Below, one piece after another: positions 1-20,106 of a stretch of DNA of 21,865 bases. The stretch is from Candidatus Rifleibacteriota bacterium. GTDB lineage: Bacteria > Muiribacteriota > Ozemobacteria > Ozemobacterales > Ozemobacteraceae. The stretch covers positions 1 to 21,865 of the forward strand of contig JBNJGH010000056.1 of NCBI GenBank assembly GCA_051747585.1, in the 5' to 3' direction. A model generated the notes under the pieces. That model saw only the letters and a list, made by a program, of their open reading frames with translations, was not told where the DNA came from and made no database searches. Numbering within the stretch: the first letter of the stretch is position 1; each line of letters begins with the position of its first letter. Made by a program: the position numbers and the translations under genes.

Positions 1-2
1 TA

Positions 3-660
3 GATTGCTTCGTCACATTCGTTCCTCGCAATGACGTCTTGTGTGGTCTCTGAGCGGAGTCGAAGAGACCCTGTAACCATCCATTGGTCATTTCGACTAA
101 CGCTCAATGACCAGTAATCGGCTGCTCAATGACCGTTTTATCTGTTGGTTGAGCGTTAGTCGCACTGGGGCACTTTGTATCCTCATGTGCCCCAGTATTA
201 GGGCATCCTGCCCGTCAAAACCACCAGTTCACGCCAACTCGGTCATTTCGACGCTTCGACTTCGCTCAGCGCATCGCTCCGCTCAATGACCTAAAGGTAT
301 GTTATTGCGAGGAGGTGTAGGGCAGATCGGCTGATCTGACCCGAAGCCGACGAAGCAATCGCTTTTTCGATAAGCGAGACCCGATATCGATAGCGACCCC
401 GAAAAACGGCCCGTCATTCCTGACAAGCGTAGCGCGATCAGGAATCCAGAATAATCGTCGTTTATGTTATTAACAAATATAAGCCGGAAGCTATAATAAA
501 AGGTATCTGCACAATCGGTATATTTGCTCTAACCCTGGATGCCTGCTTGCGCAGGCATGACGGTTCATTACGTTATCCTGATCCTAATCGATTTAAATGT
601 TGAATTTTCGATTGCGATTACTGCTTCGACAGGGCTTCGAAGGACAAGCCTCGGGCAGGA
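3..660. repeat. Intergenic cluster of short palindromic REP/RPE-like repeats of at least three families, some nested
   Basis: Family TGAGCG-N2-3-GTCGAA (or its reverse complement) inside short inverted flanks at 45-70, 86-112, 146-223, 241-291 and probably 621-658. Family GATTGCTTCGTC..CCTCGCAATGAC at 3-35 with a reverse-complement copy at 301-360. Inverted pair CCGTCATTCCTGA..TCAGGAATCCAG (411-449) / CTGGATGCCTGC..GCAGGCATGACGG (535-563). Confidence 0.85.
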
Positions 661-667
661 AGTGTTA

Positions 668-878
668 AACCACAGAGATCACAAAGAACACAGAGAAACT
701 TTTTCAGTCAGGGATTGTCCGTTTGGACAATCCGCCGGCGGTTTTCACCGCCGGACTTTCCCGGTAACAATAAACCTTTAGAAAAACACTGGTGCTTTTC
801 TAAAGGTATATTGTTACCGGGAATACTGGCTGAAAACGATTAAAAAATCATCTCGGTGCCCTCTGAGCTCTCTGTGGT
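668..878. mobile_element. ~210-bp non-autonomous composite palindromic element (MITE/REPIN-like), copy 1
   Basis: Terminal inverted arms built of three ~9-bp units (ACCACAGAG 669-677 / CTCTGTGGT 870-878). Inner inverted repeat TTTTCAGTCAG 701-711 / CTGGCTGAAAA 826-836 encloses hairpins at 712-733, 735-754 and 758-823. Related copy at 14129-14338. Mobility is inferred from the dispersed copies. Confidence 0.7.
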
Positions 879-955
879 GAAATTTCAATTTCGTTACATT
901 AGTTGGCTAACGATAGTTAAAGGCGAAGGGGTCTTGTTGCCTTCAGGAAATGTAT

Positions 956-1558
956 TCAGCCTTTGAATTTGTCGGCGACGAGGAACACCTCTCGGCTTCG
1001 ACTCAGCGAAGCTTTGGGGTTTACAGATTTGGCAAAGGAAAACATTTTTTTTGCCCGATCTAACAGCTCTTTGTATTCTGAGCCTTCAAAAACCTTTGCC
1101 ACAAAGCTTCCTCCGGGTTTAAGCAGTTTCTCGGCCATATCAAGTGCCAGATGAACCAACTGGGCAGAGTTTTCTGTGTCTGCATGATGAACCCCGGTGG
1201 TATCAGGTGCCATGTCGCTTAAAATCAGGTCGACCTTGCCGCCGGCCAGTTCGGTAATCTGGTTTTGATTAGCCTCATCTCGTATGTCGCCTTTGATAAT
1301 TTCGACTTTGCTTATGGGATCGATCTCAAGAAGATCGATAGCAATTATTTTTGCTTTGCCTTTTGCTTTTCGTTGTGCATACTGCGACCAACTGCCCGGA
1401 GCAGCCCCAAGATCGAGAATTTTTTGTCCCGGCTTGATTAACCGGTATTTTTTATCAATTTCTTCGAGCTTGTAAGCTGCTCTTGAACGGTAGTTTTCGC
1501 CTCTTGATTTCTTTAAATAATGATCATTGAGGCGGTTTTTATACCAGGCTTTGGCCAT
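956..1558 (-). CDS. rlmE: 23S rRNA (uridine-2552-2'-O)-methyltransferase RlmE/FtsJ
   Basis: YRSRAAYKL, SAM-binding LDLGAAPGSWSQ, SDMAP, KVF and SREVF motifs supply the K-D-K-E tetrad; 200 aa. Confidence 0.95.
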   Translation of the reverse strand: MAKAWYKNRLNDHYLKKSRGENYRSRAAYKLEEIDKKYRLIKPGQKILDLGAAPGSWSQYAQRKAKGKAKIIAIDLLEIDPISKVEIIKGDIRDEANQNQITELAGGKVDLILSDMAPDTTGVHHADTENSAQLVHLALDMAEKLLKPGGSFVAKVFEGSEYKELLDRAKKMFSFAKSVNPKASLSRSREVFLVADKFKG

Positions 1559-3214
1559 TCAGTTTGTTCTTTCTGAGCTTAATTTAGTATTGATCAAACG
1601 TTTTTGCGGATAGGCTTTTATTTCTTTTTTTGCTTTTATATAATTAATCAGTGCGTCTCTAACCAGAATATCCGATTTTACCCGATCCGTAATTTTTTTC
1701 AGATTGGTAAAACCATCTCCGCCATTAGCTACAAAATCACTGATAGCAACTTTGTATTTTTTAGAATGGATGATCTTATTGCCGTCAAGATCTGTTACCG
1801 AGATAATTCTATTCATTGGCTCGCGAGATGGATCAAAAGTTATTTTAAGATTAGAAGGATGAAGATATCCGTAATCAGGACCGACAACCCGTCTGAGTCC
1901 ATCTGCCTTGATGTGGTAATGTTTGGTTACATATTGTCTGTCTTCTTCGTTCATGGGCCTGAATTCATTTGAAAGAAATCGTTCTATTAAATCGATAAGC
2001 TGCGTACCAGTCATGTTTAAAGTGAAAATTTTATTATTAAAAGGCTGAACCAGAAATGCATCGCCTACGGTAATCTTACCGGCAAAAATCGGGTTTCTTA
2101 TTCCTCCAAAATTGATGAAAGCAAAGTCGGAATTAACTGCATGACTCATGGCATCGGCTATAAATGAACCTTCGGGAGAATCTCCGCCGTTGACGCCCCG
2201 GTGCAAGTCTATCTCGGAATAACCTATTACTCTGGCCATTTTTTTGCGGATTTCTTCGAGATACTGGTCTTCAAGTTCAAGTATTTGTTTATCCTGGCCA
2301 ATTTCATCAACATAGAGTGGCCGTATCTCAGCGTCCAGGGTGCTGCTGCCATCATCGTCAAGAACTACTTTAACAACAGTTGCATGTTCCAGAGAGGAGC
2401 CGGGATGAATCAAGGCAGTGTTACAGGGGCCAACCCAGTCGGCTTTAGTTGAGACGGTGTGGCTATGACCACCAAGAACCAGATCGATTCCTTCAACCTT
2501 TTCGAGAAATTTAAGGTCGGCCTCATAACCAAGGTGTGACAATAGTATAATATAATCTACTTCTGCCATTCGCATATTTTTTACCAGATCTTTAACTATA
2601 GAAACGGGATCCAGAAAAATTAGATCTTTAATGTTCTTTTCGACAGAAATGCTTGGTGTTTCAGGGGAATCGATGCCTATAACACCAATTTTAAAGCCTT
2701 TATGGGAAAAAACCAGATAGGGTTTGGCATAAGAGGCGAGTTTCTGAGTTTCTTTTTCGATTAGATTACAGCACACAATCGGAAATTTCTTGTGCTGCAT
2801 TTGTTTTAATAATGTTTGATAGGTGTAGTCGAATTCATGATTGCCAAGGGTTGCGGCATCGAGCCCAAGGTGATTGAACATGTCGATCATTACTTTTCCT
2901 TTGGTTTTATCGACTACCGGAGTGCCCTGAAAATAATCGCCGCTGTCGAAATAGAAAAATCTTGCGTTAAAATTTTCGGGCCTGGATTTGTAAGAATCCA
3001 TTAATGCCTTTAAAGTAGAAAAACCACCCATTAAAGGTTTGGGTTTCTCTTGAGAAGTTGGGTCAGGATGGGCTGAAATTGCTCCATGAATGTCGCTTGT
3101 ATGAAAAATAACTATCTCGGCAGTGCGGCCAAAAACCGAAAGCGGCAAAAGAACCAATAGTGCCAGGACAAAAATGCGTAATTGTAGCTTTTTAAAATCT
3201 GTGACTTTATTCAT
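1559..3214 (-). CDS. Secreted bifunctional 5'-nucleotidase / UDP-sugar hydrolase family metallophosphoesterase (UshA-like)
   Basis: Signal peptide; HTSDIHG, DSGDYFQG, LGNHEFD, LSHLG and GGHSH motifs; C-terminal domain with NFGGIR, PFNN and FVANGGDGF; AGGAG RBS. Its stop codon abuts the rlmE ATG. Confidence 0.92.
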   Translation of the reverse strand: MNKVTDFKKLQLRIFVLALLVLLPLSVFGRTAEIVIFHTSDIHGAISAHPDPTSQEKPKPLMGGFSTLKALMDSYKSRPENFNARFFYFDSGDYFQGTPVVDKTKGKVMIDMFNHLGLDAATLGNHEFDYTYQTLLKQMQHKKFPIVCCNLIEKETQKLASYAKPYLVFSHKGFKIGVIGIDSPETPSISVEKNIKDLIFLDPVSIVKDLVKNMRMAEVDYIILLSHLGYEADLKFLEKVEGIDLVLGGHSHTVSTKADWVGPCNTALIHPGSSLEHATVVKVVLDDDGSSTLDAEIRPLYVDEIGQDKQILELEDQYLEEIRKKMARVIGYSEIDLHRGVNGGDSPEGSFIADAMSHAVNSDFAFINFGGIRNPIFAGKITVGDAFLVQPFNNKIFTLNMTGTQLIDLIERFLSNEFRPMNEEDRQYVTKHYHIKADGLRRVVGPDYGYLHPSNLKITFDPSREPMNRIISVTDLDGNKIIHSKKYKVAISDFVANGGDGFTNLKKITDRVKSDILVRDALINYIKAKKEIKAYPQKRLINTKLSSERTN

Positions 3215-3235
3215 CTGGTTTGACTCCTGTTGTTA

Positions 3236-3487
3236 CTATTTTTCTTCTTGTTCTTCCATTACAAGTTCAATGTGATTTTTATTGATACTTATAAAATTTG
3301 ATTGCTCAATTTTTCCTGTGTCTAAATCAGTTATATCAGCATCGATTATTGGTAGAAAATCTTTTGATAAGTTTTCTGTATTTAAAATATCACTTAATCT
3401 GCTGTTTTCATAAAGGTGAATTTTTCCGTTAATTTTGTGTTTTGAGGTAAAAATTGTTACCCGCAACATTTCGTTTTTTTGTTCCAT
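3236..3487 (-). CDS. Small conserved hypothetical protein (resembles DUF6812-type beta-rich proteins)
   Basis: 83 aa, AGGAG upstream, fills the gap between operon genes. Pattern TxxHKIxGxIHL..RLSDxLN..FLPxxDA..NKxxI recalled from that family. Confidence 0.7.
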   Translation of the reverse strand: MEQKNEMLRVTIFTSKHKINGKIHLYENSRLSDILNTENLSKDFLPIIDADITDLDTGKIEQSNFISINKNHIELVMEEQEEK

Positions 3488-3521
3488 TTATTCATGCTCC
3501 TGAAAAAATATCAAAATTAGA

Positions 3522-4907
3522 TTAGATTTCTGCAAATCTTCCTTCGGCTTCTGCTAATACTGTGCCATCCGGTAATAGAACCGAAGCTCGGGCAAAATGT
3601 AAGTTTCGGCGCTGACCTACCCGGGTGGCAACAAATTTAAGTGGCACTCCAACCGGAGCCGGTCGAGCGAACCTGACTCTCATATCTGCGGTTACTGCCA
3701 TAATTGAATTGTTCATGACGGCATGAGCCATTGATTCATCCATCATGGTGCTTAAAATGCCACCATGAACAATGCCCGCATAGCCTTGAAAAGCGGGGCC
3801 GGGGGTCCAGGTGAAATTGCAGGTATTGTCTTTGACCGATTCCTTCATGGGAATATGCAGGCCAATTTTATTATTGGTGCCACAAACAAAGCAATGATTG
3901 TTGTCAATAAGGTTTAAACCATTTGCATTGCGTTTCTCTATTATAGATCTTGTAGCATTTAGCGCTTTTGTTAAAGCGGGTCGATTAATCGCTGCGGGTG
4001 TGCAGAAAGTGCCTCGTTCAAAAAGGGCAATGTTGGATTTTTCCAGTCGTGCTTTCATTGTATCAAAGCTTGGAACTTCTAATTCTTCATAAGAAGGATC
4101 ACCAGTTACAATAGGGACTGAGCCCAGGTCATTCAGACCATGGTCTGCAAGAGCAGGATAGCGGAAAAACAGGTAAGGTGGCACCGAAAGATGATGAACC
4201 GGAAAAGCTTCCTTTGCTTTTTCGACAGCCCGGCTGACCGATTCGAAAGGCAGGGGCGGTCGTTGATTCATTGTACAGTTTTCGGTTGGCTGAAAAGGCA
4301 CAATTCTTACATCTTGAAGATATGGGTCTGCAGTGCAATATCGGCCAATCTCTTCGATAAATTCGAGGCGGTCTTCTTCTGTTTCGCCGATTCCGATTAC
4401 AAAGCCGGCTGAGTAAGGGACACCGGCTTTATGAAGGGACTCAATGGCAGCTTTTCCGCCGCTCGGATTTCGGCCTCTGGCCTTCTCGAGGGCCTGGCCG
4501 GGCTTGGAAAGCGAAGCACAAACCAGATTTACTCTGATCAAGCAGCCTGCATCGACAAATTTTTCTGCGGTAAATTCATCGATATAGCCAACTGATAAAA
4601 CCGGCATAAGATTATAGTTAAGCGCAATTTCACATGCCGCCAGCAGGTAATCGTTAAACGAGGAAAAGCCGTTTCGATGAAGTTCAATCTGAATATGTGG
4701 GTATTCCTGGGGGGTCTCACCGGCAACAAGAACCACTTCGGTTGCGTTATGTTCGGCAATATTTTTCAGCTGTTGTTTAAGCTCTTCAATCGGTAATAAC
4801 GCAGCTTCCTCGCGAAAAAAAGAACAGTATCCGCACCTTTGGTGGCATGTTCGGGTTAATGCAACAAATGAACTGAATATATATGTTATGGATGCGCTTT
4901 TATTCAT
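3522..4907 (-). CDS. Divergent CofG-like (FO synthase subunit 1-like) radical SAM protein fused to a C-terminal PaaI/hotdog thioesterase
   Basis: LTRTCHQRCGYCSF (CxxxCxxC), GETP, GFVIGIGET and GLNDLG blocks are colinear with CofG. C-terminal ~130 aa has CFVCGxNNxxGL, FQGYxGIVHGG, MDE and VRFxRPxP. Confidence 0.85.
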   Translation of the reverse strand: MNKSASITYIFSSFVALTRTCHQRCGYCSFFREEAALLPIEELKQQLKNIAEHNATEVVLVAGETPQEYPHIQIELHRNGFSSFNDYLLAACEIALNYNLMPVLSVGYIDEFTAEKFVDAGCLIRVNLVCASLSKPGQALEKARGRNPSGGKAAIESLHKAGVPYSAGFVIGIGETEEDRLEFIEEIGRYCTADPYLQDVRIVPFQPTENCTMNQRPPLPFESVSRAVEKAKEAFPVHHLSVPPYLFFRYPALADHGLNDLGSVPIVTGDPSYEELEVPSFDTMKARLEKSNIALFERGTFCTPAAINRPALTKALNATRSIIEKRNANGLNLIDNNHCFVCGTNNKIGLHIPMKESVKDNTCNFTWTPGPAFQGYAGIVHGGILSTMMDESMAHAVMNNSIMAVTADMRVRFARPAPVGVPLKFVATRVGQRRNLHFARASVLLPDGTVLAEAEGRFAEI

Positions 4908-4914
4908 GACAATA

Positions 4915-4942
4915 AGATTACCATAACCCCCCGGAAAATCAA
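4915..4942 (-). promoter_or_regulatory. Putative sigma70 promoter for the radical SAM-rlmE operon (probably leaderless)
   Basis: Minus strand TTGATT-N16-TAATCT with extended TGn; ATG lies 7 nt after the -10; no Shine-Dalgarno. Confidence 0.5.
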
Positions 4943-4980
4943 AAAAGAAAAATTTAAGAGAAAAGACTTGGAAAAAAAGC

Positions 4981-5008
4981 GGAACTTTTGTTAGTAAACT
5001 GTGTCTAT
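4981..5008 (+). promoter_or_regulatory. Putative sigmaE/ECF-type promoter upstream of the moxR/bat operon
   Basis: GGAACTT (4981-4987)-N16-TCTAT (5004-5008), matching the RpoE consensus GGAACTT-N16-TCnAA; GGAGG RBS at 5027-5031. Confidence 0.55.
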
Positions 5009-5037
5009 ATTTATTGAAAACAAAATGGAGGTAAACT

Positions 5038-6030
5038 TTGTATTGCTCATCAAGGGGAAAACAAACCTTTTTAGCTATATTAACTTTATTTTTGCTGGGA
5101 GCAACCGCTCTTTATGCGCAGTATGAAATAAAAGCCGAAGTTGACCGAACAGAGGTCGCATTCGGTGAAGCCCTTACTCTGGCCGTAACGATCACCCAGG
5201 AACTCGGTGCCGGCGGTAATGTGCGCATGATGACCCCCAACATCGAGCAGATACCTGGATTTGATATTGCTTCCAGTAGATCTAATCAAAGCACCCGATT
5301 TATTAACAATTATGGCTATGCAAGGAATCAAATCGTATTTGAGTTGGTTCCAAGAGAGCCGGGCAAGAAAACTATTCCGGCCATAAGTTTTAAAGACCCG
5401 GAAGGGAAAATGCACAGTACCGACCCAATAGAAATAACAGTTCTTCCATCAGAAAAAACAGAACAAGAGCCAGAAGATAAAACGGAAACAAAAGACGAAA
5501 AAGAATCCGGCGGGTATTTGTTTAAAGGATTATTAATAGCAGGAATTGTTTTCGTTTTTTTGATCGCCATACCCTTTGTTCTTTCGAGTTTCTTTTCTAA
5601 TAACAAAGAATCCTCAGTCGCTGAGATAGAACAAACGTCTGATTCTATTAAATCAGCAGTCACTGAAGCCGAGATTATCGAAGAAAAAGTCAAAAATATA
5701 GTGCCAGATAAAAAATATTTTGATTTTAGTGCAGAATTGGCTGAATTGAAAAAAAGATACCAGGAGTTTGATAAAGAATTTTGCGGTGAATACTTTGCCT
5801 TGTTTAAAAAGGCTGCTGTTAATAAAAATAGTGCTTTAAGCAAAGATATGACCCCCGATGAGTTGATGAAAAAAATCACTGAACTCAGCGATTCAAAAGG
5901 GGTAAAAGAAGCAGGACAAAAACTGGCAATAGATATTGAAATGGTTATGTATGCCGGGCAGAAACCTGCACGGAATTTTAAAGCTATCGAAGAAGATGTC
6001 GGCCTGGTCTTGCGGGCAATTGAAGATTAA
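5038..6030 (+). CDS. batD: BatD-family membrane protein (single BatD Ig-like repeat, TM helix, C-terminal helical domain)
   Basis: TTG start with GGAGG; signal peptide; AEVDRTEVAFGEALTL..LVPREPGKKTIPAI..TDPIEITV repeat; TM LLIAGIVFVFLIAIPFVL; operon context. Confidence 0.75.
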   Translation: MYCSSRGKQTFLAILTLFLLGATALYAQYEIKAEVDRTEVAFGEALTLAVTITQELGAGGNVRMMTPNIEQIPGFDIASSRSNQSTRFINNYGYARNQIVFELVPREPGKKTIPAISFKDPEGKMHSTDPIEITVLPSEKTEQEPEDKTETKDEKESGGYLFKGLLIAGIVFVFLIAIPFVLSSFFSNNKESSVAEIEQTSDSIKSAVTEAEIIEEKVKNIVPDKKYFDFSAELAELKKRYQEFDKEFCGEYFALFKKAAVNKNSALSKDMTPDELMKKITELSDSKGVKEAGQKLAIDIEMVMYAGQKPARNFKAIEEDVGLVLRAIED

Positions 6031-6051
6031 TAATCTCCGGGAGAGTTTGAA

Positions 6052-7047
6052 ATGAATGAAAGTGCAGAACTTCAAAAAAGAGTTGAAACAGCGGGAATAA
6101 CTATTGAAAAAATCAGAGAGCAGGTGCGCAAAGTTCTGGTCGGTCAGAATGATCTGCTCGAAAGTTTGCTTGTGGCAATGGTAAGCGATGGGCATATATT
6201 GCTTGAGGGTGTTCCCGGGCTGGCAAAAACTTTAGCGATTAAAGCCTTGGCACGCACAGTTGAGACCGGTTTTTCCAGAATTCAGTTCACTCCAGATCTT
6301 TTGCCGGCTGACCTTATCGGCACCCGAGTTTTTGACCCGAAAACAACTGAGTTTCAGACTCATAAGGGCCCGATTTTTTCTAACTTTATTCTTGCAGATG
6401 AAATCAACAGAGCCCCGGCCAAGGTTCAAAGTGCTTTGCTCGAATCAATGGAAGAGCGGCAGGTTACGATTGAGCATGAAACATTCAAGCTCACAGAGCC
6501 ATTTCTGGTGCTGGCAACCCAAAACCCGATAGAAACAGAGGGTACCTATACTCTGAGTGAAGCCCAGGTAGACCGATTCCTTTTTAAGGTTGTAGTTTCT
6601 TACCCATCATTTGAAGAAGAGCGACAAATCGTTAAAATGATGGGACTTGAAGAAAAGAGTCATGGCATAGAAGCGGTTCAACCGGCTGTTGATGCAAATG
6701 ATGTAATCGCATTGCGAAAACTTGCCCGCGATATTTATGTAGATGAAAAAATTATTGAGTATATTTTGCGCCTGGTAGATGCTACCCGTAATCCTGAAGC
6801 TTACAATCTGGATTTAAAAGAATATATAAGGTTTGGCGCTTCTCCCCGTGCATCAATTTATCTGACCCACGCTGCACGCAGTTTGGCGATGATCAAAGGA
6901 AGAATATTTGTCAAGCCCGATGATGTTAAAGCGGTTTTACTTGAAATACTGCGACACCGGGTAATACCAACCTATGAAGCTGAAGCCGATGAAATTACTT
7001 CAGATGAGATAGTAAAAAGAATTCGTGACGGGGTTGCCGTTCCCTGA
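6052..7047 (+). CDS. moxR: MoxR-family AAA+ ATPase (MoxR-proper subfamily)
   Basis: Walker A GVPGLAKT, RIQFTPDLLPAD, Walker B LADEINRAPAKVQSALLE, ATQNPIE..EAQVDRF, GASPRA. Confidence 0.96.
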   Translation: MNESAELQKRVETAGITIEKIREQVRKVLVGQNDLLESLLVAMVSDGHILLEGVPGLAKTLAIKALARTVETGFSRIQFTPDLLPADLIGTRVFDPKTTEFQTHKGPIFSNFILADEINRAPAKVQSALLESMEERQVTIEHETFKLTEPFLVLATQNPIETEGTYTLSEAQVDRFLFKVVVSYPSFEEERQIVKMMGLEEKSHGIEAVQPAVDANDVIALRKLARDIYVDEKIIEYILRLVDATRNPEAYNLDLKEYIRFGASPRASIYLTHAARSLAMIKGRIFVKPDDVKAVLLEILRHRVIPTYEAEADEITSDEIVKRIRDGVAVP

Positions 7048-7063
7048 GGAGTAAATAAAGTCT

Positions 7064-7954
7064 ATGTTGCCTAAAGAGCTTTTGAAAGAAGTTAGACGAA
7101 TTGAGATAAAAACCAGAAATCTGGTTGATTCTCTCTACGCTGGTGGATATCGTTCCATGTTCAAAGGGCGTGGTATAGAATTTGCCGGAATCCGCCAATA
7201 TTATCGGGGCGATGAATTTAAGTCTATAGACTGGAAAGTCAGCGCTCGCTCCGGTGAGTTCCATGTTCGAGAACATATTGAAGAGCGAGAACTTCAGGTA
7301 GTGGTGGCTCTTGATTTGTCTGCCTCTATGGAATTTGGCTCGGGCAATAGAGAAAAACGAGAGAGCGCGGTAGAATTTGCTGCTGCTATGAGTATGGCAG
7401 CCGAAAAAAATAATGACAGGGTAGGGGCTTGTCTTTTTACCGATGAAGTTGAAAAATTTATTGTTCCGGCCAAGGGAAAAACGCATATTTTAAGACTTAT
7501 TCGTGATTTGCTTTATTTTGTTCCGAAAAGAAAAAAAACAGACCTGCGTTCTGCTTTAAATTTTTTAAATGCAACCATTGGTCGCAGATCGGTTATTTTT
7601 CTGGTAACAGATGCTATTAACATTGCCGCAATTGATCGTGAGCTGCGGGTAACTGCAGCTAAACACGATTTTGTTCTTGTGCTCTTAAGAGACCCGCGTG
7701 AACATGAAATACCGGATATCGGACTCATAGAGATAGAAGACCCTGAAACCGGACACGAAATATTGTTCGATACTTCTGACCGTCGGGCAGTTGAAGAATT
7801 ATTACAAAAACGTATAAAGGCAGAAAAAGAGCTTTTACAGAGGTGCGGTAAGCTTGGCATTGATCATATCGAATTGATGGCCGGGGAATCGGTTGTTAAA
7901 TCTATTTGTCGCTTGTTTGCCGAGCGCGAAAAGCGCATCAGTCTTATTAAATAA
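7064..7954 (+). CDS. DUF58 domain protein (MoxR-associated)
   Basis: GGYRSMFKGRGIEF, RQYYRGDE..IDWKVSAR, EERE, DLSASM, DRVG; directly after moxR. Confidence 0.92.
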   Translation: MLPKELLKEVRRIEIKTRNLVDSLYAGGYRSMFKGRGIEFAGIRQYYRGDEFKSIDWKVSARSGEFHVREHIEERELQVVVALDLSASMEFGSGNREKRESAVEFAAAMSMAAEKNNDRVGACLFTDEVEKFIVPAKGKTHILRLIRDLLYFVPKRKKTDLRSALNFLNATIGRRSVIFLVTDAINIAAIDRELRVTAAKHDFVLVLLRDPREHEIPDIGLIEIEDPETGHEILFDTSDRRAVEELLQKRIKAEKELLQRCGKLGIDHIELMAGESVVKSICRLFAEREKRISLIK

Positions 7955-7970
7955 TTTAGAAGAGGTGGTT

Positions 7971-9215
7971 ATGAACAGCCTTAGAGGTATATCGAAAAAA
8001 ATTAATGCAATTTTGATTATTGTTATGGCAGGTCTTGCATTAGGACTTGTGTTAGCCTGGCATTATTATCAGACTCGAAAGCTGGTAACGGTTGAAAAGG
8101 ATCAATATGCTGCCGAATTGCTGGCACACGATTTGCCCGGTCAGGCTGTAAGAATTCTTGAAGACTCGATTTCACGCGATCCTCTTTCAGAAAAGAGTTT
8201 AAAAAAGCGGAAAACACTGGCTGACATTTATATGAAAGAACTTGACCAATACGAAAAAGCTTTGGCAGAGCTGGTATTTATTAGAACCTTTGCCCCCGGA
8301 AATGCTTCAGAAACTGAAAGCGAAATTAGATACTGCCTTAACCGCCTGGGTAGAACCTATGACGTTGAAAGGCGCCAAATGCTGGCTGAGGGTATTAATC
8401 CGCTTAAAAATGAAGTTGCCTCCGATACTGTTATACGTATTGGCAATAAAGAGGCATTGTCGCTTGCCGATCTCAAGAATCGTCTGCAATCAATGAATCT
8501 GGATTCTGATAATCTGCAGAAATCCCAACTCGATAAAATTGTCCATTCTATTGCAAGAGAAAAACTTCTCAAGCGGGCTGCTGAACGAGAGAAGATTTCA
8601 CAGAGTGAAGATTTTGTCAGACAAATTCGGGAATTTGAAGAAAATCTTAAAATAAAACTGTTTCTGGAAAAAAATGTTTTCAGCGAAATAACTGTAAAAG
8701 AAGCTGAAGTAGATGCTTTTATAAAAAATAACGCAGACCAGTTTAAAATGCCCGACAGGGTTAAATATTCCTGCTTTGCTTTTCAAAATGCCGGGCAGGC
8801 TGAATTTTTTATCGAGCAAAAAGAGGCGGATTCAGCATTTGAATATGCCCAAAGCGCAAGTGCTCCTCAAGTGATTGCCGATGAGATCGAACGGCCGGTA
8901 GAAAAGCTGCCCGCTGAGATTAGAAGTCTGAATTTCAGCCTGGCTGATCAAATTGGATTCTTTGGACCCATCAAAATCGATGATAAATATCTGGTTTACC
9001 AGATTCATTCTTTCGTTCCGGGCCAGAAGTTACCGCCAGCGCAGGTGCGTAATTATGCAAAACAAAAACTGACCGAAAGAAAACAACAGGAAATACTGAG
9101 CGCAGCAATTTCTGAGCTGGCAGAAAAAGAAGAAATGAAAATCAACGAGGAAGTTATAAAGAACGCTTTTTTTGCTCAAGCTTCCGAGACCCAAAAGCTG
9201 AAAAATGAACAATAA
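7971..9215 (+). CDS. Membrane-anchored TPR plus SurA-N/parvulin (PpiC)-like chaperone
   Basis: Start moved from 7893 to ATG 7971 (GAGG upstream, removes the overlap). N-terminal TM; TPR-like LADIY..YEKALAEL; REKLLKRAAERE, ITVKEAEVDAFIKNN..F..P and GPIK segments typical of PrsA/SurA-like proteins. Confidence 0.65.
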   Translation: MNSLRGISKKINAILIIVMAGLALGLVLAWHYYQTRKLVTVEKDQYAAELLAHDLPGQAVRILEDSISRDPLSEKSLKKRKTLADIYMKELDQYEKALAELVFIRTFAPGNASETESEIRYCLNRLGRTYDVERRQMLAEGINPLKNEVASDTVIRIGNKEALSLADLKNRLQSMNLDSDNLQKSQLDKIVHSIAREKLLKRAAEREKISQSEDFVRQIREFEENLKIKLFLEKNVFSEITVKEAEVDAFIKNNADQFKMPDRVKYSCFAFQNAGQAEFFIEQKEADSAFEYAQSASAPQVIADEIERPVEKLPAEIRSLNFSLADQIGFFGPIKIDDKYLVYQIHSFVPGQKLPPAQVRNYAKQKLTERKQQEILSAAISELAEKEEMKINEEVIKNAFFAQASETQKLKNEQ

Positions 9216-9217
9216 TT

Positions 9218-9808
9218 ATGAAAAGTTTCGGGCATAAAATTGAATCAAATTATAGAATTCCAGTGGCCGGGGTGGTTGCATCTCAGTCCTTGCCAGAACT
9301 CCCCCCGGGTGAAGAAATCTATGACCTCATGCCCTTTGCAAAACTTGCTTTTCCATGGCTTTACTGGTTTTTACAGCTGCTAATATTTCTTTTTGCCATT
9401 TTTGTTTTTTTCAAATTGTGGCGCTGGCTGAACACTGAACCCGAGAAAGTAAGAAAGCCGATAATACAAAGCCCTGAAAAGCAGGCTGAAAGGGCCTTGA
9501 GACGTTTGAAGCTTTCGCCGGTATGGAATAACAGGCAAATGAAAGAAATCTGCGAAGTTCTGGTAAAAATACTGAAGACCTTTATAAAGCAGAAATACGA
9601 TATTGGGCTTGGTGCAGCTGCTACCTCTGATGAAATGATGGAAAGTTTAAATAAAGAAAATATTGCCAAAGGGGTGCTCAAAGATATAGGTGATCTATTC
9701 AACACCTGTGACAGAATCAAATATACCGGAAAGACTTACGAAGCAGATGCCGAAAAATTGGCCAGTCTGGTTAAGAAGCTTATTCTTTCCCGGAGGTGGC
9801 AGACATGA
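9218..9808 (+). CDS. Single-TM Bat-operon protein (DUF4381-like)
   Basis: IYDL..P.PW then TM; AERALRRL; TSDE and DRIKY motifs; usual position just upstream of batA; ATGA overlap with the next gene. Confidence 0.7.
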   Translation: MKSFGHKIESNYRIPVAGVVASQSLPELPPGEEIYDLMPFAKLAFPWLYWFLQLLIFLFAIFVFFKLWRWLNTEPEKVRKPIIQSPEKQAERALRRLKLSPVWNNRQMKEICEVLVKILKTFIKQKYDIGLGAAATSDEMMESLNKENIAKGVLKDIGDLFNTCDRIKYTGKTYEADAEKLASLVKKLILSRRWQT

Positions 9809-10818
9809 AGTTTAATAACCCTGAATTTTTGCTGCTTCTGGCTTTGATACCGGTAATAGTTTTTTACAAACTTTTCGTTTTAAGAAATGTTCCCAAAGGT
9901 GGTATAAGGTTCCCTCTGGCATTTCTATCTGCGCAAATCAGGCAATCATGGAGAACAAGACTTATATTTATACCTGACTTGTTGCGTATCGTTACATTAA
10001 CTTTGCTGGTCTTTGCCCTTATGCAGCCTCAATATGGTTTCGAGCGCGAAGAAATCAGCCGCAAAGGCATTGATATTATGATTTCTTTAGATGTTTCGGG
10101 CAGCATGGCAGCCGAAGATTTTAAACCTAATCGCTTAAAAGCTGCCAAAAAAATTACGGAAAACTTTATTACCGGTCTGGTCGACCATCGAATCGGGTTG
10201 GTAGTATTTGCCGGATTGTCTTTGACTCAGTGCCCATTAACCATAGACTATGGTGTGGTTACCGAATTGTTGAGCCGCGCATCGTTGCAAATGATTAAAG
10301 CAGATGGAACCGCAATAGGTGACGCTATTGTAAACGCAGTTTATAAGTTCGATGTCGCTAAAGACAAAAAGCGTGACCGGGTTATTGTTCTTTTAACCGA
10401 TGGTGAAGCCAACGCCGGTGCTGTCGATCCCCTCGAAGCCGCCAAAATTGCTTCTGATAAATCCGTTAAAATTTATACCATTGGGGTTGGCAGTATCGAT
10501 GGAGCAGCGATTCCAATAATACGTAACGGCCGCAAATTTTATGCCCGCAATAATGACGGAAGTCTTTATATTCCCAAAATAGATGAGCAGTTGCTTAAAG
10601 ATATCGCCTATATGACCGGTGGGCAGTATTTTCGTGCAACAGACAACGAAGCTTTAAAGAAAATTTATGATAAGATTGCAACCCTCGAGAAGGGTGAAAT
10701 AGATGTTAACAAAACCACACAGTATTCACACAGATTTTACTGGTTTCTTGCACCGGCTTTTTGTCTGCTCTTAATTGAAATTTATCTGAGAACCAGAGTT
10801 TTTCAGAGGGTATTCTAA
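9805..10818 (+). CDS. batA: BatA-like von Willebrand factor A membrane protein
   Basis: Start ATG 9805 (GGAGG 9792-9796). FNNPEFLLLL N-terminus, MIDAS DVSGS, GTAIGDA, LLTDGE, TGGQYFRA, C-terminal TM. Confidence 0.9.
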   Translation: MKFNNPEFLLLLALIPVIVFYKLFVLRNVPKGGIRFPLAFLSAQIRQSWRTRLIFIPDLLRIVTLTLLVFALMQPQYGFEREEISRKGIDIMISLDVSGSMAAEDFKPNRLKAAKKITENFITGLVDHRIGLVVFAGLSLTQCPLTIDYGVVTELLSRASLQMIKADGTAIGDAIVNAVYKFDVAKDKKRDRVIVLLTDGEANAGAVDPLEAAKIASDKSVKIYTIGVGSIDGAAIPIIRNGRKFYARNNDGSLYIPKIDEQLLKDIAYMTGGQYFRATDNEALKKIYDKIATLEKGEIDVNKTTQYSHRFYWFLAPAFCLLLIEIYLRTRVFQRVF

Positions 10819-11852
10819 TGTTTAAATATCCGGAAAACATAATAATCTTAATTGCCGTTGCAATATGGCTGACAATTCTATGGCGCCACGCGTCTAAAAC
10901 TCTGCTTAAAAAAAGAACCACTTTTGCAAGCAAGCTTATGCTGACAAGAATTGCCGGTCACAAGTCTACTCGGCGTCCCGTTTACAAATGGATTCTGGTA
11001 ATCCTGGCAGTATTGTTAATTTCAATCGGATTAATGCGACCCCAGGGTGGAATGACCGAAGAAGAAATTTTTGGCAAAGGCCTTGATCTTGTAATTGCTC
11101 TGGATATTTCCAAATCGATGAAGGCACAGGATATAGAAGGAAGATCGCGTCTCGATGTCGCCAAAGCCATATTGGCGAGAATGATGAACGGTCTGCGTGA
11201 CGACAGAATCGGTCTGGTAGTTTTTGCCGGGGAAACTATGATTCAAAGCCCCTTGTCGCGAGATAAAGATACTTTTTTAACTTTTCTTGAACGAGTTAAT
11301 CCTTCGTTGTTGGCAAAACAGGGCACCAACCTTTCTTCGGCAATTGAAACCTCAATTGATCGTTTTGACATTAATGCCTCACAGACCAAAGTTATAGTGC
11401 TGTTTTCTGACGGAGAAGATCGAGACAAAGAACGGCTCGACCGAGCTATCGATGAAGCAGGCAAAAAAAACATTCCCATTTTTACCGTAGGACTGGGTAG
11501 CGAAAAAGGTGGCTATATTCCCGAAGGGCGCACCTGGTTCGGAGAAACAGAGTATAAAACTTATAAAGGGGAAAGGGTTATAACTAAATTAAAAGATGAT
11601 GTTTTAAAAAATATAGCAGCTCGAACCAATGCCGAATATTTACGAGCTTCAGATATAAGCAGTGCAAGAGACGTAGTTTCACGATTGAACGAGCTTGACC
11701 GAATCGCCGTATCTGGCGGAACGCGTGAAATTCGAGTTGAATTATTCTGGTTGCCTGCTCTGATTGCATTTCTGTTTTTGTTGTTTGAATGGATGATATC
11801 AGAGCGAATACCCTATGAGCGAGAAAAGGATCATTGGTTAAAAAGAATATGA
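10818..11852 (+). CDS. batB: BatB-like von Willebrand factor A membrane protein
   Basis: TAATG overlap with batA; RPQ, MIDAS DISKSM, DRIGLVVFAG, QGTNL, SDGED, GGYIP; C-terminal TM. Confidence 0.9.
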   Translation: MFKYPENIIILIAVAIWLTILWRHASKTLLKKRTTFASKLMLTRIAGHKSTRRPVYKWILVILAVLLISIGLMRPQGGMTEEEIFGKGLDLVIALDISKSMKAQDIEGRSRLDVAKAILARMMNGLRDDRIGLVVFAGETMIQSPLSRDKDTFLTFLERVNPSLLAKQGTNLSSAIETSIDRFDINASQTKVIVLFSDGEDRDKERLDRAIDEAGKKNIPIFTVGLGSEKGGYIPEGRTWFGETEYKTYKGERVITKLKDDVLKNIAARTNAEYLRASDISSARDVVSRLNELDRIAVSGGTREIRVELFWLPALIAFLFLLFEWMISERIPYEREKDHWLKRI

Positions 11853-12952
11853 AAAAGTTGTATTTAACTTTAATATTGTGTTGTGTTGTTGTTTCTTTAT
11901 CTGCTCATCCGGCTTTTAATAATAAAAAAGCCAGAAAATATCTGCAGGCAGGTAAGCTCGAGGCTGCCGAAAAAGAGTTGCATCTTGCACGGTTTGCTGA
12001 ACCTCAAAGAGCGGAAATAAAATATAATCTCGGTTATCTAAGTTATCGTAAAAGAAATTATAAAAAAGCCATCCAATATTTTTCCGATGCTGCTCAAAAC
12101 ACTGATGACAAAGAACTGAGATTCAGCAGTCTGCATAATCTGGGGAATGCCTCCTACAGGCAGGGTAATTATGCCAAAGCTGTTGAAGCCTACAAAAAGG
12201 GTCTTGAGATTGAACAAAATGCAGAAACCTCTTATAACCTTAAAAAGGCTGAAGAAATGCTGAAAAAACAAATTGAGCAGCAGCAGAAAGAACAGCAAAA
12301 TAAAGAGCAAAAAAAGCAAAAACAGCAAAAATCTGGCGAGCAACAACAAAATAAGCAACAGCAAGGTAATAATAAACAACAAAACCAGGGTCAGAAAGAC
12401 CAGGGGCAGCAGAATAAAGATTCGCAACAAAATAAAGGTAGCCAGCAAAAGAATGGGCAGCAAAAGCCTGAGAGTGATAAAAAACAAAGTGGCTCGAATG
12501 AACGACAAAAAGCCGACAAATCAGAAAAAGGCCAGCAGAAGCAGCAGCAAAGTGGCGAAAAGTCTGAACAGCAAAAGCAGAACCAACAAAAACAGAACCA
12601 GCAGGGGCAGTCTGATAAGGGTGAGCAGCAGGAAAGAGGCGAAGGCAATAACCAAGAGCGTCAAGATGTTCAAATGGGCGATAAAAAAGGCGATGATAAA
12701 AAAATGCCTCAAGCTTCACAACGTGCACGAGCTTTAAAAAACCGTAAGCTGAATCCTTACATGGTTGAGAAACTTTTGCGAGATCTCAAAGAACGAGAGA
12801 AAAAAGGGCAGCTGTATTACCGCAACGAGCCCAGGCGTCAAGAAGAAACCGATCCATTTTCAATGAATGCTCGCCAACTACGCGATTTTTTCAGAAACCG
12901 CGGAAGAAGGGGCCGAAGCAAACCCGGGACTGATGATGAACCTGACTGGTAA
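11849..12952 (+). CDS. batC: BatC-like TPR protein with Gln/Lys-rich low-complexity linker
   Basis: Start ATG 11849 (ATGA overlap with batB). Signal peptide, TPRs YNLGYLSY and HNLGNASY, long Q/K/N tract, terminal DW. Confidence 0.82.
   Translation: MKKLYLTLILCCVVVSLSAHPAFNNKKARKYLQAGKLEAAEKELHLARFAEPQRAEIKYNLGYLSYRKRNYKKAIQYFSDAAQNTDDKELRFSSLHNLGNASYRQGNYAKAVEAYKKGLEIEQNAETSYNLKKAEEMLKKQIEQQQKEQQNKEQKKQKQQKSGEQQQNKQQQGNNKQQNQGQKDQGQQNKDSQQNKGSQQKNGQQKPESDKKQSGSNERQKADKSEKGQQKQQQSGEKSEQQKQNQQKQNQQGQSDKGEQQERGEGNNQERQDVQMGDKKGDDKKMPQASQRARALKNRKLNPYMVEKLLRDLKEREKKGQLYYRNEPRRQEETDPFSMNARQLRDFFRNRGRRGRSKPGTDDEPDW
12270..12665 (+). repeat. Low-complexity Gln-rich coding tract (CAA/CAG/AAA) within batC
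   Basis: Imperfect QQKxQ, SGEQ and SDKG units visible in the translation. Confidence 0.8.
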
Positions 12953-12954
12953 GC

Positions 12955-13941
12955 TCAGGCTTCAACAATAAGGGCTCCTTCGCCTGTCTTGCGTGCATTG
13001 TACAATGCGAGTTGAGCTCTATGAATAAAGCTTTCCAGATCGTCTTCGGTATGAAGACCGGTTAAACCAAAAGAAAAATTGGCTGTAATCTTGTGCTCTG
13101 TCATTTCCATGTTTTCAAGCTTGGCTCTGAATGATCTGATTATTTTACCTGCCTGGTTTACCTTTGTATCGGGCATAAACAAGACAAATTCATCTACTCC
13201 GAGTGAACCAAGAACATCGCATCCCCTGATATGAGCTTTAAGTTCTTCTGCAGATTCTTTTAAAATTTCGTGAGCGGTTTCGTTGCCATGAAGGTTTACT
13301 ATCTGTTTGAAATTTTCCATGTCCATGATAATTAATGAAAGGTCTTCATCTTCATAGTGAGCATGATATATAGCTTCTTCAAGCTTTGATATAAAAAATT
13401 GATGGGTGTAAATACCGGTTTCAGTATCAAATTGTTTTAGTTCGGAAATAATTCTTAACAGGTTTTCTTTTTCGAGAGCAGCAGAAATTGCCCCTGCCAT
13501 TGCCATTAAAAAGTTTAGAGTTCCCTGTTCAATTGAAAATTCTTCTTCAAAATAGTTTGCTAAAAAACCGAAGGTTCTTCCTTCCCAGCCGATATGAATG
13601 GCTATGCACATGGCATAATCTTTATCTATTTTCATTTCTTTGTAGTCGTCAGGGTTTTTTTCAGGAGTTATCAAGGTGAAACTATCTTTAAAAAAAACTC
13701 TACCGATTGTATTGCTGCCGATTTTTTTGTGAAAATTAGTCAAAGCCTGACGTGGAATATTATGAGAATGTGGTATGTCGAGATAAGATGTCTGATTGTT
13801 TTGTAACGCTATGTATGAGTAACTTGCATGCAGCTGTTGTTCAATTGTTCTAAAAGCTTTTTGAATTAACCTGGTAGCGTTGGGTTCGGTTAAATATCCC
13901 TTAAGAGTATGCGAAAGGGCAATGAGCATTTTTTCTTTCAT
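12955..13941 (-). CDS. GAF plus degenerate GGDEF domain protein
   Basis: AAGGAG RBS; N-terminal GAF-like region; DTETGIY, DMENFK, RGCD-VLGSL-GVDEF, SFG, ALYNARKTG. Confidence 0.88.
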   Translation of the reverse strand: MKEKMLIALSHTLKGYLTEPNATRLIQKAFRTIEQQLHASYSYIALQNNQTSYLDIPHSHNIPRQALTNFHKKIGSNTIGRVFFKDSFTLITPEKNPDDYKEMKIDKDYAMCIAIHIGWEGRTFGFLANYFEEEFSIEQGTLNFLMAMAGAISAALEKENLLRIISELKQFDTETGIYTHQFFISKLEEAIYHAHYEDEDLSLIIMDMENFKQIVNLHGNETAHEILKESAEELKAHIRGCDVLGSLGVDEFVLFMPDTKVNQAGKIIRSFRAKLENMEMTEHKITANFSFGLTGLHTEDDLESFIHRAQLALYNARKTGEGALIVEA

Positions 13942-14002
13942 ACCGGCTCCTTATAATACAGATCAGCTGGGACATGAATATTCACTATTTTGCACTGACT
14001 AA

Positions 14003-14011
14003 ATTATAGCA
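14003..14011 (-). promoter_or_regulatory. Extended -10 promoter for the GAF-GGDEF gene
   Basis: TGCTATAAT on the minus strand, ~60 nt upstream of the ATG. Confidence 0.55.
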
Positions 14012-14128
14012 TATCATTAAAATTTACGCTTAATTGCCGGTTTTACTTAGCAATTCTCGGTAAGCGTCTATCAGTTGGCTTTCGAAAAGAATATTCCTCA
14101 CACCAAGTCTCAAAGCCACAAAGAAAAT

Positions 14129-14338
14129 AACCACAGAGCGCACAGAGAACACAGAGAATCTTTTTCAGCCATTGTTTCCTTCTTCAGCAAGCCTTCAGAA
14201 AAGCACTCGTGTTTTTCTGAAGGCTTGCTGAAGAAGGAAAAGCCGGGCGGTGAAACCGCCGGCTATTTGTCCACAGGACAAATCCTGGCTGAAAAAGAGT
14301 AAAAAATCAACTCTGAGCTCTCGGTGGCCTCAGTGGTT
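14129..14338. mobile_element. ~210-bp composite palindromic element, copy 2 (inner core inverted relative to copy 1)
   Basis: Arms AACCACAGAG.. / ..CTCAGTGGTT. Perfect 13-bp inner inverted repeat 14159-14171 / 14286-14298. Hairpins at 14175-14240, 14241-14264 and 14265-14283. Confidence 0.7.
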
Positions 14339-14420
14339 TAAATTCTATATTTGACAGAAAGAAATAAAACCAGAACTTTTTGTAACCAGCTAATAATAAT
14401 TGACCGAGGACTGCTGGGTT

Positions 14421-16421
14421 TTACTTCTTTTTTATGATTTCAATCAGTTTTTTACTGTGGTTCAAAATTTTGTTGCAGGTTTTTTCCATATTTTCAGGCT
14501 GGTATTGTTTCTGAAAATTATCATCAAAAATAAATTGATTATTGCCGGTTACTCCCCATTTAAGTCCTTGAAGTTCGCTGAAATGGTAAAGGCTGCTGTT
14601 CTTATCGCTTCGGTAAACTATACGATTCTTACCCGAAACATCAAAAGTTGCTACTCCTTTGTTTGTATCTTCAAGCATATTGTAACCGTAAGAATTTTTT
14701 ACCTTAAAGTCTGCTAAATGGCCGAGTGTCGGTAAAATATCAATATGACTTGTGAGCTTGTTTACTTTGACAGAAGGCAAACCCCCGCCTAAAATTATAC
14801 ATGGAACCCGGTTCTGCAAAATATCCGGGCTGGTGCTGTGAAACAAAACTCCGTTTTCACCCAGAGCCTGCCCATGGTCGCCGGTAATAACAACAATCGT
14901 ATCAGAAAAAAGATTTTTACTTTTTAACTGGTTAATGAAGTATTCAATAAGATGGTCGCTGTAAAGAATACTGTTACGATATCTGTTAGCCAGACGATTT
15001 GAAACGGTTTTAAAATCAGAGGTTAATATTTCGCGATTTTGCTTTAATACCGGAGTATATTTTTCAAATTCGGGCGGATACCAGTATTTATAATGAGTAT
15101 GAAAAAGAAGCCCTTCTATTATGCACTGATCTGATTTTTGCAGCTTATCAACTATTGCATCACAGATTAACTTGGAGTCTTTAACGACGCCGAGCTCGTC
15201 GGGTTTGAGCTCATATTTATCTTTCAGATAATCTTTAACGGATACATATTGGTATTCCGGATAAAAAAGATTTCCATAAGAGTGACTCAGGCGCAGAAAA
15301 TCGTAACCGCTTTTTTTCAGAAATTCTATCCAGGCGGCGGGGTTTTTATCGTAATAACTGCGTTGCGAGGCCAGGGGCAGGGTGTTGTAATAAATAGCAA
15401 TTATTCCACCTTCGGTTTCATTTGAGTTCGATAAATGGTTAGCGCACCATATTCCTTCTTCAGCCAGTTTTTTTGTCCTGGTCATAAGGTTTGCAACCAT
15501 ATCTGCCCTGAAACTTTCGAAAACCAGAAAAACAAAATTTTTCTTTTTGTGCTTTTTCGTCCATCCGAATTCAGGTTGCTGGTTAAAATCAGCAGATTTT
15601 ACTTTTGCATTTTTAAGAAAGTTGTCAATCTTGTCGAAATTTCGGTTTGCAAGCATCGGATATTGAGGAAGAGGGAACCAGAAATTTCTGATTTTAAATT
15701 CAAAATATTCATTAAAAGGAATACCGGCAGCAAAAATAAAATATTGAATGTAAATAAACAAAAAAGAAAGGGAAAAAACTGCACCGCATATTTTATTTCT
15801 GGCAGTGAATTTTAACTTTGGTCCGTATTTAAAAATAAAGAAGGAAACAATTATAAATAGTGCGATTGCTGCCAGAGGAATTAAAACCATGTTAAGAGTA
15901 AGACCGGCATTGGTAAGGTTCTCGAAAAATGAGCCGCCAAAGGATTGAATTTTTCTTAAGTAAAAACTTTTAATATGTTGCCGGGTCAGGGCGTAATGTT
16001 TGTAGTCGATATAGAGAAAAAGACTGAGAAAAAGATTGAAGGGCAGATAAACAAAAATCAAACGAGGAAAATAATGGCAGGTTACACTTTCCCAGAACCA
16101 TAAAAAATAAGCTGAAAAAAACAATACCCCCCAGAACCAGAATGCCATAGAGTTTAAAGCAACAGAGGCAAAAATAAAGATCAAAAGAAAAATGGCCGGC
16201 AAGTAAACAAATATAAGTTTGTCGGCGAACTGCTTTTTGATTATGCTAAAAATTAGCAAAGCCGCAAAAAACAAGCTTAGGGCAACTTCAATGTTAAAAA
16301 ATGGGATAACCACACTTAAAGCAAAAAAATCAACCGGAAAAATGGCGCTGCTGAAAAATACAATAAGTATGTTTAAAATAATAAACTGAAAAAATAACAA
16401 AAAGCTGTGTCGGTTCTGCAA
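14421..16421 (-). CDS. Polytopic membrane protein with C-terminal sulfatase-like domain (YejM/PbgA / LTA synthase family)
   Basis: TTG start with GAGGG; multiple N-terminal TM helices; FLVFESFRAD, NHLSNSNET, HYKY, YRNSILYSD, ITGDHG and TSHIDILPTL. Confidence 0.85.
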   Translation of the reverse strand: MQNRHSFLLFFQFIILNILIVFFSSAIFPVDFFALSVVIPFFNIEVALSLFFAALLIFSIIKKQFADKLIFVYLPAIFLLIFIFASVALNSMAFWFWGVLFFSAYFLWFWESVTCHYFPRLIFVYLPFNLFLSLFLYIDYKHYALTRQHIKSFYLRKIQSFGGSFFENLTNAGLTLNMVLIPLAAIALFIIVSFFIFKYGPKLKFTARNKICGAVFSLSFLFIYIQYFIFAAGIPFNEYFEFKIRNFWFPLPQYPMLANRNFDKIDNFLKNAKVKSADFNQQPEFGWTKKHKKKNFVFLVFESFRADMVANLMTRTKKLAEEGIWCANHLSNSNETEGGIIAIYYNTLPLASQRSYYDKNPAAWIEFLKKSGYDFLRLSHSYGNLFYPEYQYVSVKDYLKDKYELKPDELGVVKDSKLICDAIVDKLQKSDQCIIEGLLFHTHYKYWYPPEFEKYTPVLKQNREILTSDFKTVSNRLANRYRNSILYSDHLIEYFINQLKSKNLFSDTIVVITGDHGQALGENGVLFHSTSPDILQNRVPCIILGGGLPSVKVNKLTSHIDILPTLGHLADFKVKNSYGYNMLEDTNKGVATFDVSGKNRIVYRSDKNSSLYHFSELQGLKWGVTGNNQFIFDDNFQKQYQPENMEKTCNKILNHSKKLIEIIKKK

Positions 16422-19933: not shown

Positions 19934-20106
19934 ATACAATCTTACAGTTTGGCAATATCATGACAGCGACGATCAAATCTTTTAAAAAATCGTCTCGGTG
20001 CGTTCTGTGCTATTATTGGTAAAAATTAAATTTTTAACAAAAAGAATAAAAGCAAAATCTTTGAAAACCACCTGATAACAGTTCACTGAGAATTGCTGGC
20101 AAAAAA

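Follow-up and report, generated by a model that had tools for sequence, protein, structure and literature searches.

The stretch of DNA considered here, a contig of 21,865 nucleotides from Candidatus Rifleibacteriota bacterium (JBNJGH010000056.1, assembly GCA_051747585.1), carries two copies of a nested palindromic element, whose family in the genome and whose inverting inner part are the subject of this work. The whole stretch, hereafter the window, is the entire contig C56 of the organism's own assembly (G000; 4.14 Mb, 330 contigs, 93.6% complete). Each copy consists of an asymmetric outer frame with a left (L) and a right (R) arm, a pair of inner inverted repeats, and a core of three hairpins (A, B and C). 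An earlier note, made from the sequence without database searches, had placed the copies at 668-878 and 14129-14338, and their coordinates and sequences are as given there. The outer frames indeed lie in the same orientation, the left parts being identical at 37/42 and the right parts at 40/51 positions when aligned directly; pairing scores were 69 and 69 for the direct arrangement and 35 and 47 for the crossed one. The core is reverse-complemented between the copies (83/118 identical, score 125, against 60/118 and a score of 25 in direct alignment), and its hairpins follow the order A-B-C in copy 1 but C-B-A in copy 2. Two points of the note needed amendment. The inner repeats exist, but the length assigned to them has to be corrected to a consensus of 13-15 bp (AATCTTTTTCAGCC(A)), and the frame of copy 2 was rightly described while its full extent was overlooked: the copy spans 14048-14416, is bounded by terminal inverted repeats and flanked by a target duplication of 9 bp, and is a complete miniature inverted-repeat transposable element (MITE). 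For both copies, the predicted fold is a closing stem that carries three hairpins separated by linkers 0-3 nt long (z -13.6 and -14.7 for copies 1 and 2; 0/200 shuffles equally good). Rfam gave nothing above the gathering cut-off, only generic hairpin matches, the best with 34 bits against a cut-off of 84. The features of the copies are as follows.

668..878, + strand: copy 1, frame and core in the order L-A-B-C-R, without MITE ends (flank scores 17 and 16, which is shuffle level)
668..696, + strand: left arm of copy 1, three CAC(A)GAG-type units
697..709, + strand: left inner inverted repeat of copy 1, two deviations from the consensus
711..734, + strand: hairpin A of copy 1
735..757, + strand: hairpin B of copy 1
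758..823, + strand: hairpin C of copy 1, arms of 32 bp, outer stem copy-specific, tip conserved
828..840, - strand: right inner inverted repeat of copy 1
841..878, + strand: right arm of copy 1, A-rich spacer followed by three CTC-G-G units
14039..14047, + strand: target-site duplication GGTTTTACT, left copy (empty site in other strains' contigs)
14048..14416, + strand: copy 2, complete 369-bp MITE of the young subfamily, L-C-B-A-R
14048..14063, + strand: left terminal inverted repeat of copy 2, ISNCY-type
14129..14157, + strand: left arm of copy 2
14158..14170, + strand: left inner inverted repeat of copy 2
14175..14240, - strand: hairpin C of copy 2
14241..14264, - strand: hairpin B of copy 2
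14265..14283, - strand: hairpin A of copy 2
14287..14299, - strand: right inner inverted repeat of copy 2
14300..14338, + strand: right arm of copy 2
14401..14416, - strand: right terminal inverted repeat of copy 2
14417..14425, + strand: target-site duplication GGTTTTACT, right copy
19975..20098, + strand: third copy, a decayed right half with a right-arm piece, right flank and terminal repeat (20085-20098), no core and no left end

The genome holds approximately 124 cores (127 matches to hairpins A+B, 3 of which are second-strand duplicates). Among these matches, 98 have an inner repeat and an arm on both sides and 12 lie at a contig end, the rest being deleted, decayed or chimeric. Pairing yielded 93 units, from which 2 typed R/R were removed, leaving 91 complete frame-plus-core units. 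When core orientation is tabulated against the frame genome-wide, as the earlier note had proposed, both combinations are frequent, with 35 units reading L-ABC-R and 56 reading L-CBA-R. The family is therefore neither confined to the two copies of the window nor fixed in one orientation elsewhere, and more than one flip is needed. Inner-repeat sites next to a frame arm (n = 255) comprise 76 of the type L-C, 72 R-A, 46 L-A, 45 R-C and 16 that are unclassified; because all four arm-core junction types occur many times, assembly error is excluded as the cause of the two classes. Many contigs break within hairpin C. Two cores have the form C-B-C with different C stems and without hairpin A (G000 C52:1328-1517 and C92:8206-8400), and are likely chimeras joined at hairpin B; no A-B-A core was found. 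The note had also suggested a small element that inserts either way into a host repeat, which is not supported, as neither an empty frame among 241 frame arms nor a free core among the 127 core matches was found.

In a derived subfamily (G000 C13, C18:4972, C78 and C126), another tandem repeat replaces hairpin C and most of the left arm; amplification has since brought this form to at least 4 copies. By rough calls of open reading frames (ORFs), the element is enriched between divergent genes (25/63 against 334/2024 gaps genome-wide), the frame opposes transcription in 24/32 co-directional sites, and the direction of the core relative to transcription is unbiased (19 to 13). The core was not found outside the species. 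The exact hairpin A+B pattern matches once among GTDB contigs and three times among metagenome contigs, always without the remaining element, and the C-tip pattern, present at 106 sites in G000, has single one-mismatch matches in 2/86 other genomes of the phylum.

Outside the frame, most units run on into conserved flanks closed by a 16-bp terminal repeat. Both terminal repeats are present in 44/91 units, mostly 367-373 bp apart, and the 9-base sequences flanking these two-ended units match at 9/9 positions in 13, at 8/9 in 10 and at 0-7 in 21. There is no ORF of at least 80 aa within the element. The same locus was compared with contigs of other strains, the best holder of which had 0.40 of the window words. 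In two runs of one study, X2 (depth 3.5) and X4 (depth 3.8), contigs connect 14038 to 14417, skipping 378 = 369 + 9 positions, which is the empty site of copy 2. In run X1, one contig connects 463 to 960 via 15 other letters (30-letter side, likeness setting 88), a weak sign that copy 1 may be absent there.

Several relatives hold the same terminal repeat in large numbers (G003, for example, has 62 sites and G017 has 49; reversed-pattern controls gave 0-3 per genome). In relative G022, it stands at both ends of a 1564-bp insertion sequence (IS) with a 443-aa DDE_Tnp_1 transposase frame, and in relative G006 the two IS ends lie on separate contigs with an identical 9-bp flank. Homologs of the G022 transposase occur on plasmids at approximately 35% identity, some of them annotated as ISNCY (2 of the 10 listed), and an ISNCY element of Nostoc punctiforme plasmid pNPUN02 (locus L109) terminates in the same 11 bases and is flanked by a duplication of 10 bp. 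A finer label for such ends is presumably the "ISMae2 group". Being short, multi-copy and free of a transposase, with terminal repeats, a target duplication, ends shared with an IS and insertion polymorphism, the element is a MITE. These outer ends, which the earlier reader overlooked, explain how the element spreads.

Candidates for an autonomous partner in the own genome, namely an IS1380, a broken transposase piece and a RAYT-like gene, all lack the terminal repeats and were rejected, as was L061 (G000 C307:1346-2548), which is distantly homologous to the ISNCY-like transposase (22-24%) but has no MITE terminal repeat. The same MITE ends also carry other cargo, both in the own genome and in relatives. 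They surround unrelated repeat mosaics at G000 C7:4172-4581, C25:11727-12276, C203:1377-1731 and C248:1388-1744, and short deletion forms lie on G000 C3, C4, C5, C11, C209 and C318. Relatives hold other MITE families of 127-287 bp with ISNCY-type ends and palindromic cargo of their own (L048, L049, L028, L030, L040 and L043), and in genome G035 a 31-bp element (L018:1486-1516) consists of two ISNCY-type ends alone with a perfect 9-bp duplication.

The middle layer of the element is the frame, whose arms are tandem CAC-GAG units inverted relative to each other. The earlier note had advised looking for GxxExxY nuclease genes flanked by the same arms, and such genes were found in relatives, enclosed on both sides by the inverted arms at 4/20 loci by count and at a fifth by eye; most of the other GxxExxY loci among the 20 carry different units. 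The gene is present in 22/51 genomes of the family, with no match in G000 and none in 4 other genomes of the genus. In the 80 units whose MITE flanks could be classified (9 truncated and 2 unparsed units were excluded), both flanks are present in 55, one in 12 and neither in 13, copy 1 included. Most of these 13 stop sharply at the frame, and no target duplication is evident by eye at the frame-only copies. Copy 1 has a unique core, and its flanks lie about 30 bp away from the inner repeat. The GIY-YIG locus L107 shows no element motif. The RAYT-like gene, which scores below the family cut-off, lies at the end of contig C196; its locus has no element motif, one flank being outside the assembly. 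Window positions 1-560, adjoining copy 1, form a dense mosaic of other short palindromic repeats, which we take to resemble those beside GIY-YIG and four-helix-bundle genes. At 3522-4907 (- strand), the window has an ORF of 461 aa that, as read from the sequence, apparently fuses a radical-SAM-type domain to a thioesterase-like domain.

How often the core has turned over can be read from trees. The core tree, built from the first 76 bases in all 91 units and having few columns and many unresolved forks, requires 17 changes of orientation (15-17 in bootstraps; 25 in shuffles), of which well-supported branches force 8. Orientation is clustered on this tree (0/500 shuffles as low), that is, inherited along lineages and not random. 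A tree of the flanks, built from 43 complete units, needs 5 changes, 2 of them forced. Both orientations occur in several sub-lineages: among 38 core clusters, 8 have more than one member and 4 of these 8 hold both orientations, and cores identical over the 76 compared bases are found either way round. Since core tree, flank tree and mixed-orientation clusters all need repeated changes, several flips occurred, plausibly 4 to 8. Flipping is slow, because the young subfamily stands at 32:3 (p = 4e-7 against 50:50). Core and left flank are both young in one flipped copy, C31_1015, whose target duplication matches at 9/9 positions.

Copying from arm to arm is seen at every palindrome of the element. 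The stems of hairpin C, compared over 26 bp per arm in 89 parsed units (2 unparsed), have no mismatch in 66 units, one in 14 and two in 6, the remaining 3 being apparently mis-parsed, and yet 56 different arms occur with a mean difference of 8.5/26 bases. In the young subfamily, 10 distinct changes are found on both arms and 3 on one. At the tip of hairpin C, the mismatch is of the A.C form in 44 units, of the G.T form in 28 and resolved in a further 16, so that the tip exists in both orientations; the retention of both forms would fit strand-symmetric copying of DNA better than selection on an RNA. The loops of hairpins A and B are likewise found flipped, hairpin A has been made a perfect palindrome by the same extension in two unrelated copies, and in copy C115 the inner repeats on either side of the core carry an identical change of two bases. 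The loop flips, the double-arm changes and the change shared by the inner repeats of C115 point to template switching, which, according to the portions of PMC8604942 and PMC8794818 that were available, causes arm homogenisation and inversion of spacers or loops. We also considered a guide-like origin of the variable C stem and rejected it. An initial excess of long matches, caused by unmasked element fragments, disappeared under stricter masking (mean longest match 13.1, with 12.3 for shuffled and 12.6 for reversed sequence; none longer than 15), and C stems showed no excess of matches to their own flanks (6.0 against 6.3).

On this evidence, the element is a multi-copy non-coding MITE with ISNCY-type ends and a frame of GxxExxY-type arms, whose three-hairpin core has been turned over several times between the 13-15-bp inner repeats, probably by polymerase template switching during replication or repair. 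An ISNCY-family DDE transposase would move the 369-bp unit in trans. In single-stranded DNA, the three hairpins would fold almost without linkers and bring the inner repeats together; a polymerase that switches strand at one inner repeat and back at the other would then leave the 116-bp core inverted. Transposition would subsequently multiply flipped copies and recombination among copies would mix them, and flipping would be a slow mutational by-product and no phase-variation switch.

Several observations weigh against this explanation. The spacers inverted in the yeast paper of the set PMC8604942/PMC8794818, as far as its available portions go, measure 2-5 bp, far below 116 bp, although folding may effectively shorten the longer spacer. 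The inner repeats are weakly homogenised: both equal the consensus in 55/91 units, 36/91 are off consensus, C115 holds the only clear shared change, and in C218 the deviating inner repeats share one base. The outer C stem differs by 0.53 and the flanks by 0.21-0.23 among 13 cluster representatives, more than passive copying alone predicts, a value that is inflated because the core itself served to define the clusters. Copies whose target duplications are intact have recombined their left and right flank haplotypes with one another (read by eye), and with the two C-B-C cores this means that the tree counts overstate the true flips. Both MITE ends are lacking in the 13/80 classifiable copies noted above, the IS with the same ends was not found in the own assembly, and no strand-change joint at the same locus was seen among the joints listed from other strains' contigs (3 joints not shown).

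The alternative that survives best is core exchange, in which, after one or two old inversions, gene conversion put cores into resident frames of either orientation and few flips took place in situ. Young cores differ by 2.9% on average and their flanks by 10-11%, in favour of exchange, a contrast that arises partly because the copies were selected by core. Flank haplotypes in all four combinations with intact duplications, two C-B-C cores whose different stems resemble chimeras joined at hairpin B, and a flank tree that needs just 5 changes, 2 of them forced, agree with it as well. Nevertheless, C31_1015 is flipped with young core, young left flank and 9/9 duplication all in place, the loop flips and the C115 change need copying within one element, and no A-B-A core has turned up; we regard core exchange as unlikely.

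The arms invite another explanation, that frame and core (approximately 211 bp) are a gene-less arm element of GxxExxY nucleases with its own copying via a folded single strand, flips and arm matching being products of that copying and the IS ends having been captured by one unit later. The GxxExxY genes of relatives inside the same CAC-GAG inverted arms, and the copies without both MITE ends that mostly end sharply at the frame, would fit, and the conservation of hairpins A and B and of the C tip while the C stem drifts might be expected of a protein-binding scaffold. However, the gene is missing from the own assembly and from the 4 other genomes of the genus searched, the frame-only copies show no target duplication by eye and could be decayed MITEs, and no mobility mechanism of GxxExxY genes was found in the literature searched, where few subscription papers were covered. 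This explanation seems to us quite improbable. A bolder version, which we put forward as distinctly unlikely, would make frame and core a separately mobile, gene-less satellite of GxxExxY nuclease elements: the inner repeat and three hairpins would form a four-way junction recognised by the nuclease or a host resolvase, replication, by copying through the fold, would give rise to flip and flop products and to matched arms, and an ISNCY transposon would have captured the unit later, leaving two mobile DNAs nested. If it is true that the frame moves alone, the family would provide a handle on the movement of widespread GxxExxY arm elements.

The earlier note had also proposed an invertible cassette between the inner inverted repeats, which holds as a description but is not supported as an enzyme-driven system. 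A site-specific recombinase that inverts the core in trans at the inner repeats would account for the conservation of those repeats and for the inversion ends falling there. But a genome-wide search for the tyrosine or serine recombinase that the note had advised seeking gave two tyrosine-recombinase matches, best as XerC and XerD (catalytic domains only), and no resolvase/invertase domain in the own assembly; a simple consensus scan for sigma-70-like sites found none in either core, and core direction is unbiased to transcription. Orientation is inherited, and such an enzyme would leave the loop flips and double-arm changes unexplained, so that we consider this switch very unlikely. That the core inverted once in ancient times and two subfamilies were then amplified, or that the two classes stem from mis-assembly, is extremely improbable and already largely refuted: the clustering of orientation on the trees and the many contigs that break inside hairpin C agree with it, but cores identical over 76 bases in both orientations, 8 forced changes, four junction types with 45-76 occurrences each and a flipped young copy with a 9/9 duplication do not.

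Template switching within a MITE remains our preferred explanation. The element can be compared with several known systems. Hin- and Fim-type invertons also have a segment between short inverted repeats that occurs in both orientations. The element differs from them in its approximately 120 dispersed copies, the lack of a cognate recombinase, a switching too slow to randomise its inherited orientation and a segment without a promoter-like site; it is very unlikely to be an inverton. ISNCY-family IS share with it ends that begin CAGCAATTCTC and a duplication of 9-10 bp, whereas the transposase is absent inside the element and the cognate IS was found in relatives and not in the own assembly. 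REP/REPIN-RAYT systems, as described in the available parts of PMC3116915, PMC3337134 and PMC3733652, are similarly lineage-specific palindromic intergenic repeats in mosaics with other repeats; in the present case, no link to the genome's RAYT-like gene was seen, and DDE-type ends and target duplications are found instead.

Type II MITEs (Correia/CREE, ERIC, Nezha and QMITE), according to the available text of PMC10969869, resemble the element in being short, non-coding, multi-copy, intergenic and strongly folded, with terminal repeats shared with IS, a target duplication and a presence that varies between strains. The element is set apart by three nested inverted-repeat layers and by an inner stretch of 116 bp whose direction changes against that of the ends. 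The same text mentions inversion of the Correia element and, in the portion available, not that of an inner core. Likewise, no MITE with an internally flipping core was found in the literature searched, with the same limited coverage of subscription papers, and the "internal inversion" of PMC6267812 concerns prophages and offers no parallel.

A further likeness is to template-switch mutations at inverted repeats, for which the available portions of PMC8604942 and PMC8794818 describe arm homogenisation, stem extension, loop inversion and parallel recurrence, and with which the hairpin-associated small inversions of plastid DNA may be grouped. With about 120 copies in one genome, the nested palindrome documents naturally how arms are copied and segments inverted at four scales. 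It also cautions against reading a functional RNA or a phase-variation switch into every "compensatory" change or two-orientation segment of a repeat. Compared with the cases described in those portions, the element stands out by its four nested levels in one repeat family and its folded spacer, and its copies suggest that such a spacer of 116 bp can invert between arms of 13-15 bp.

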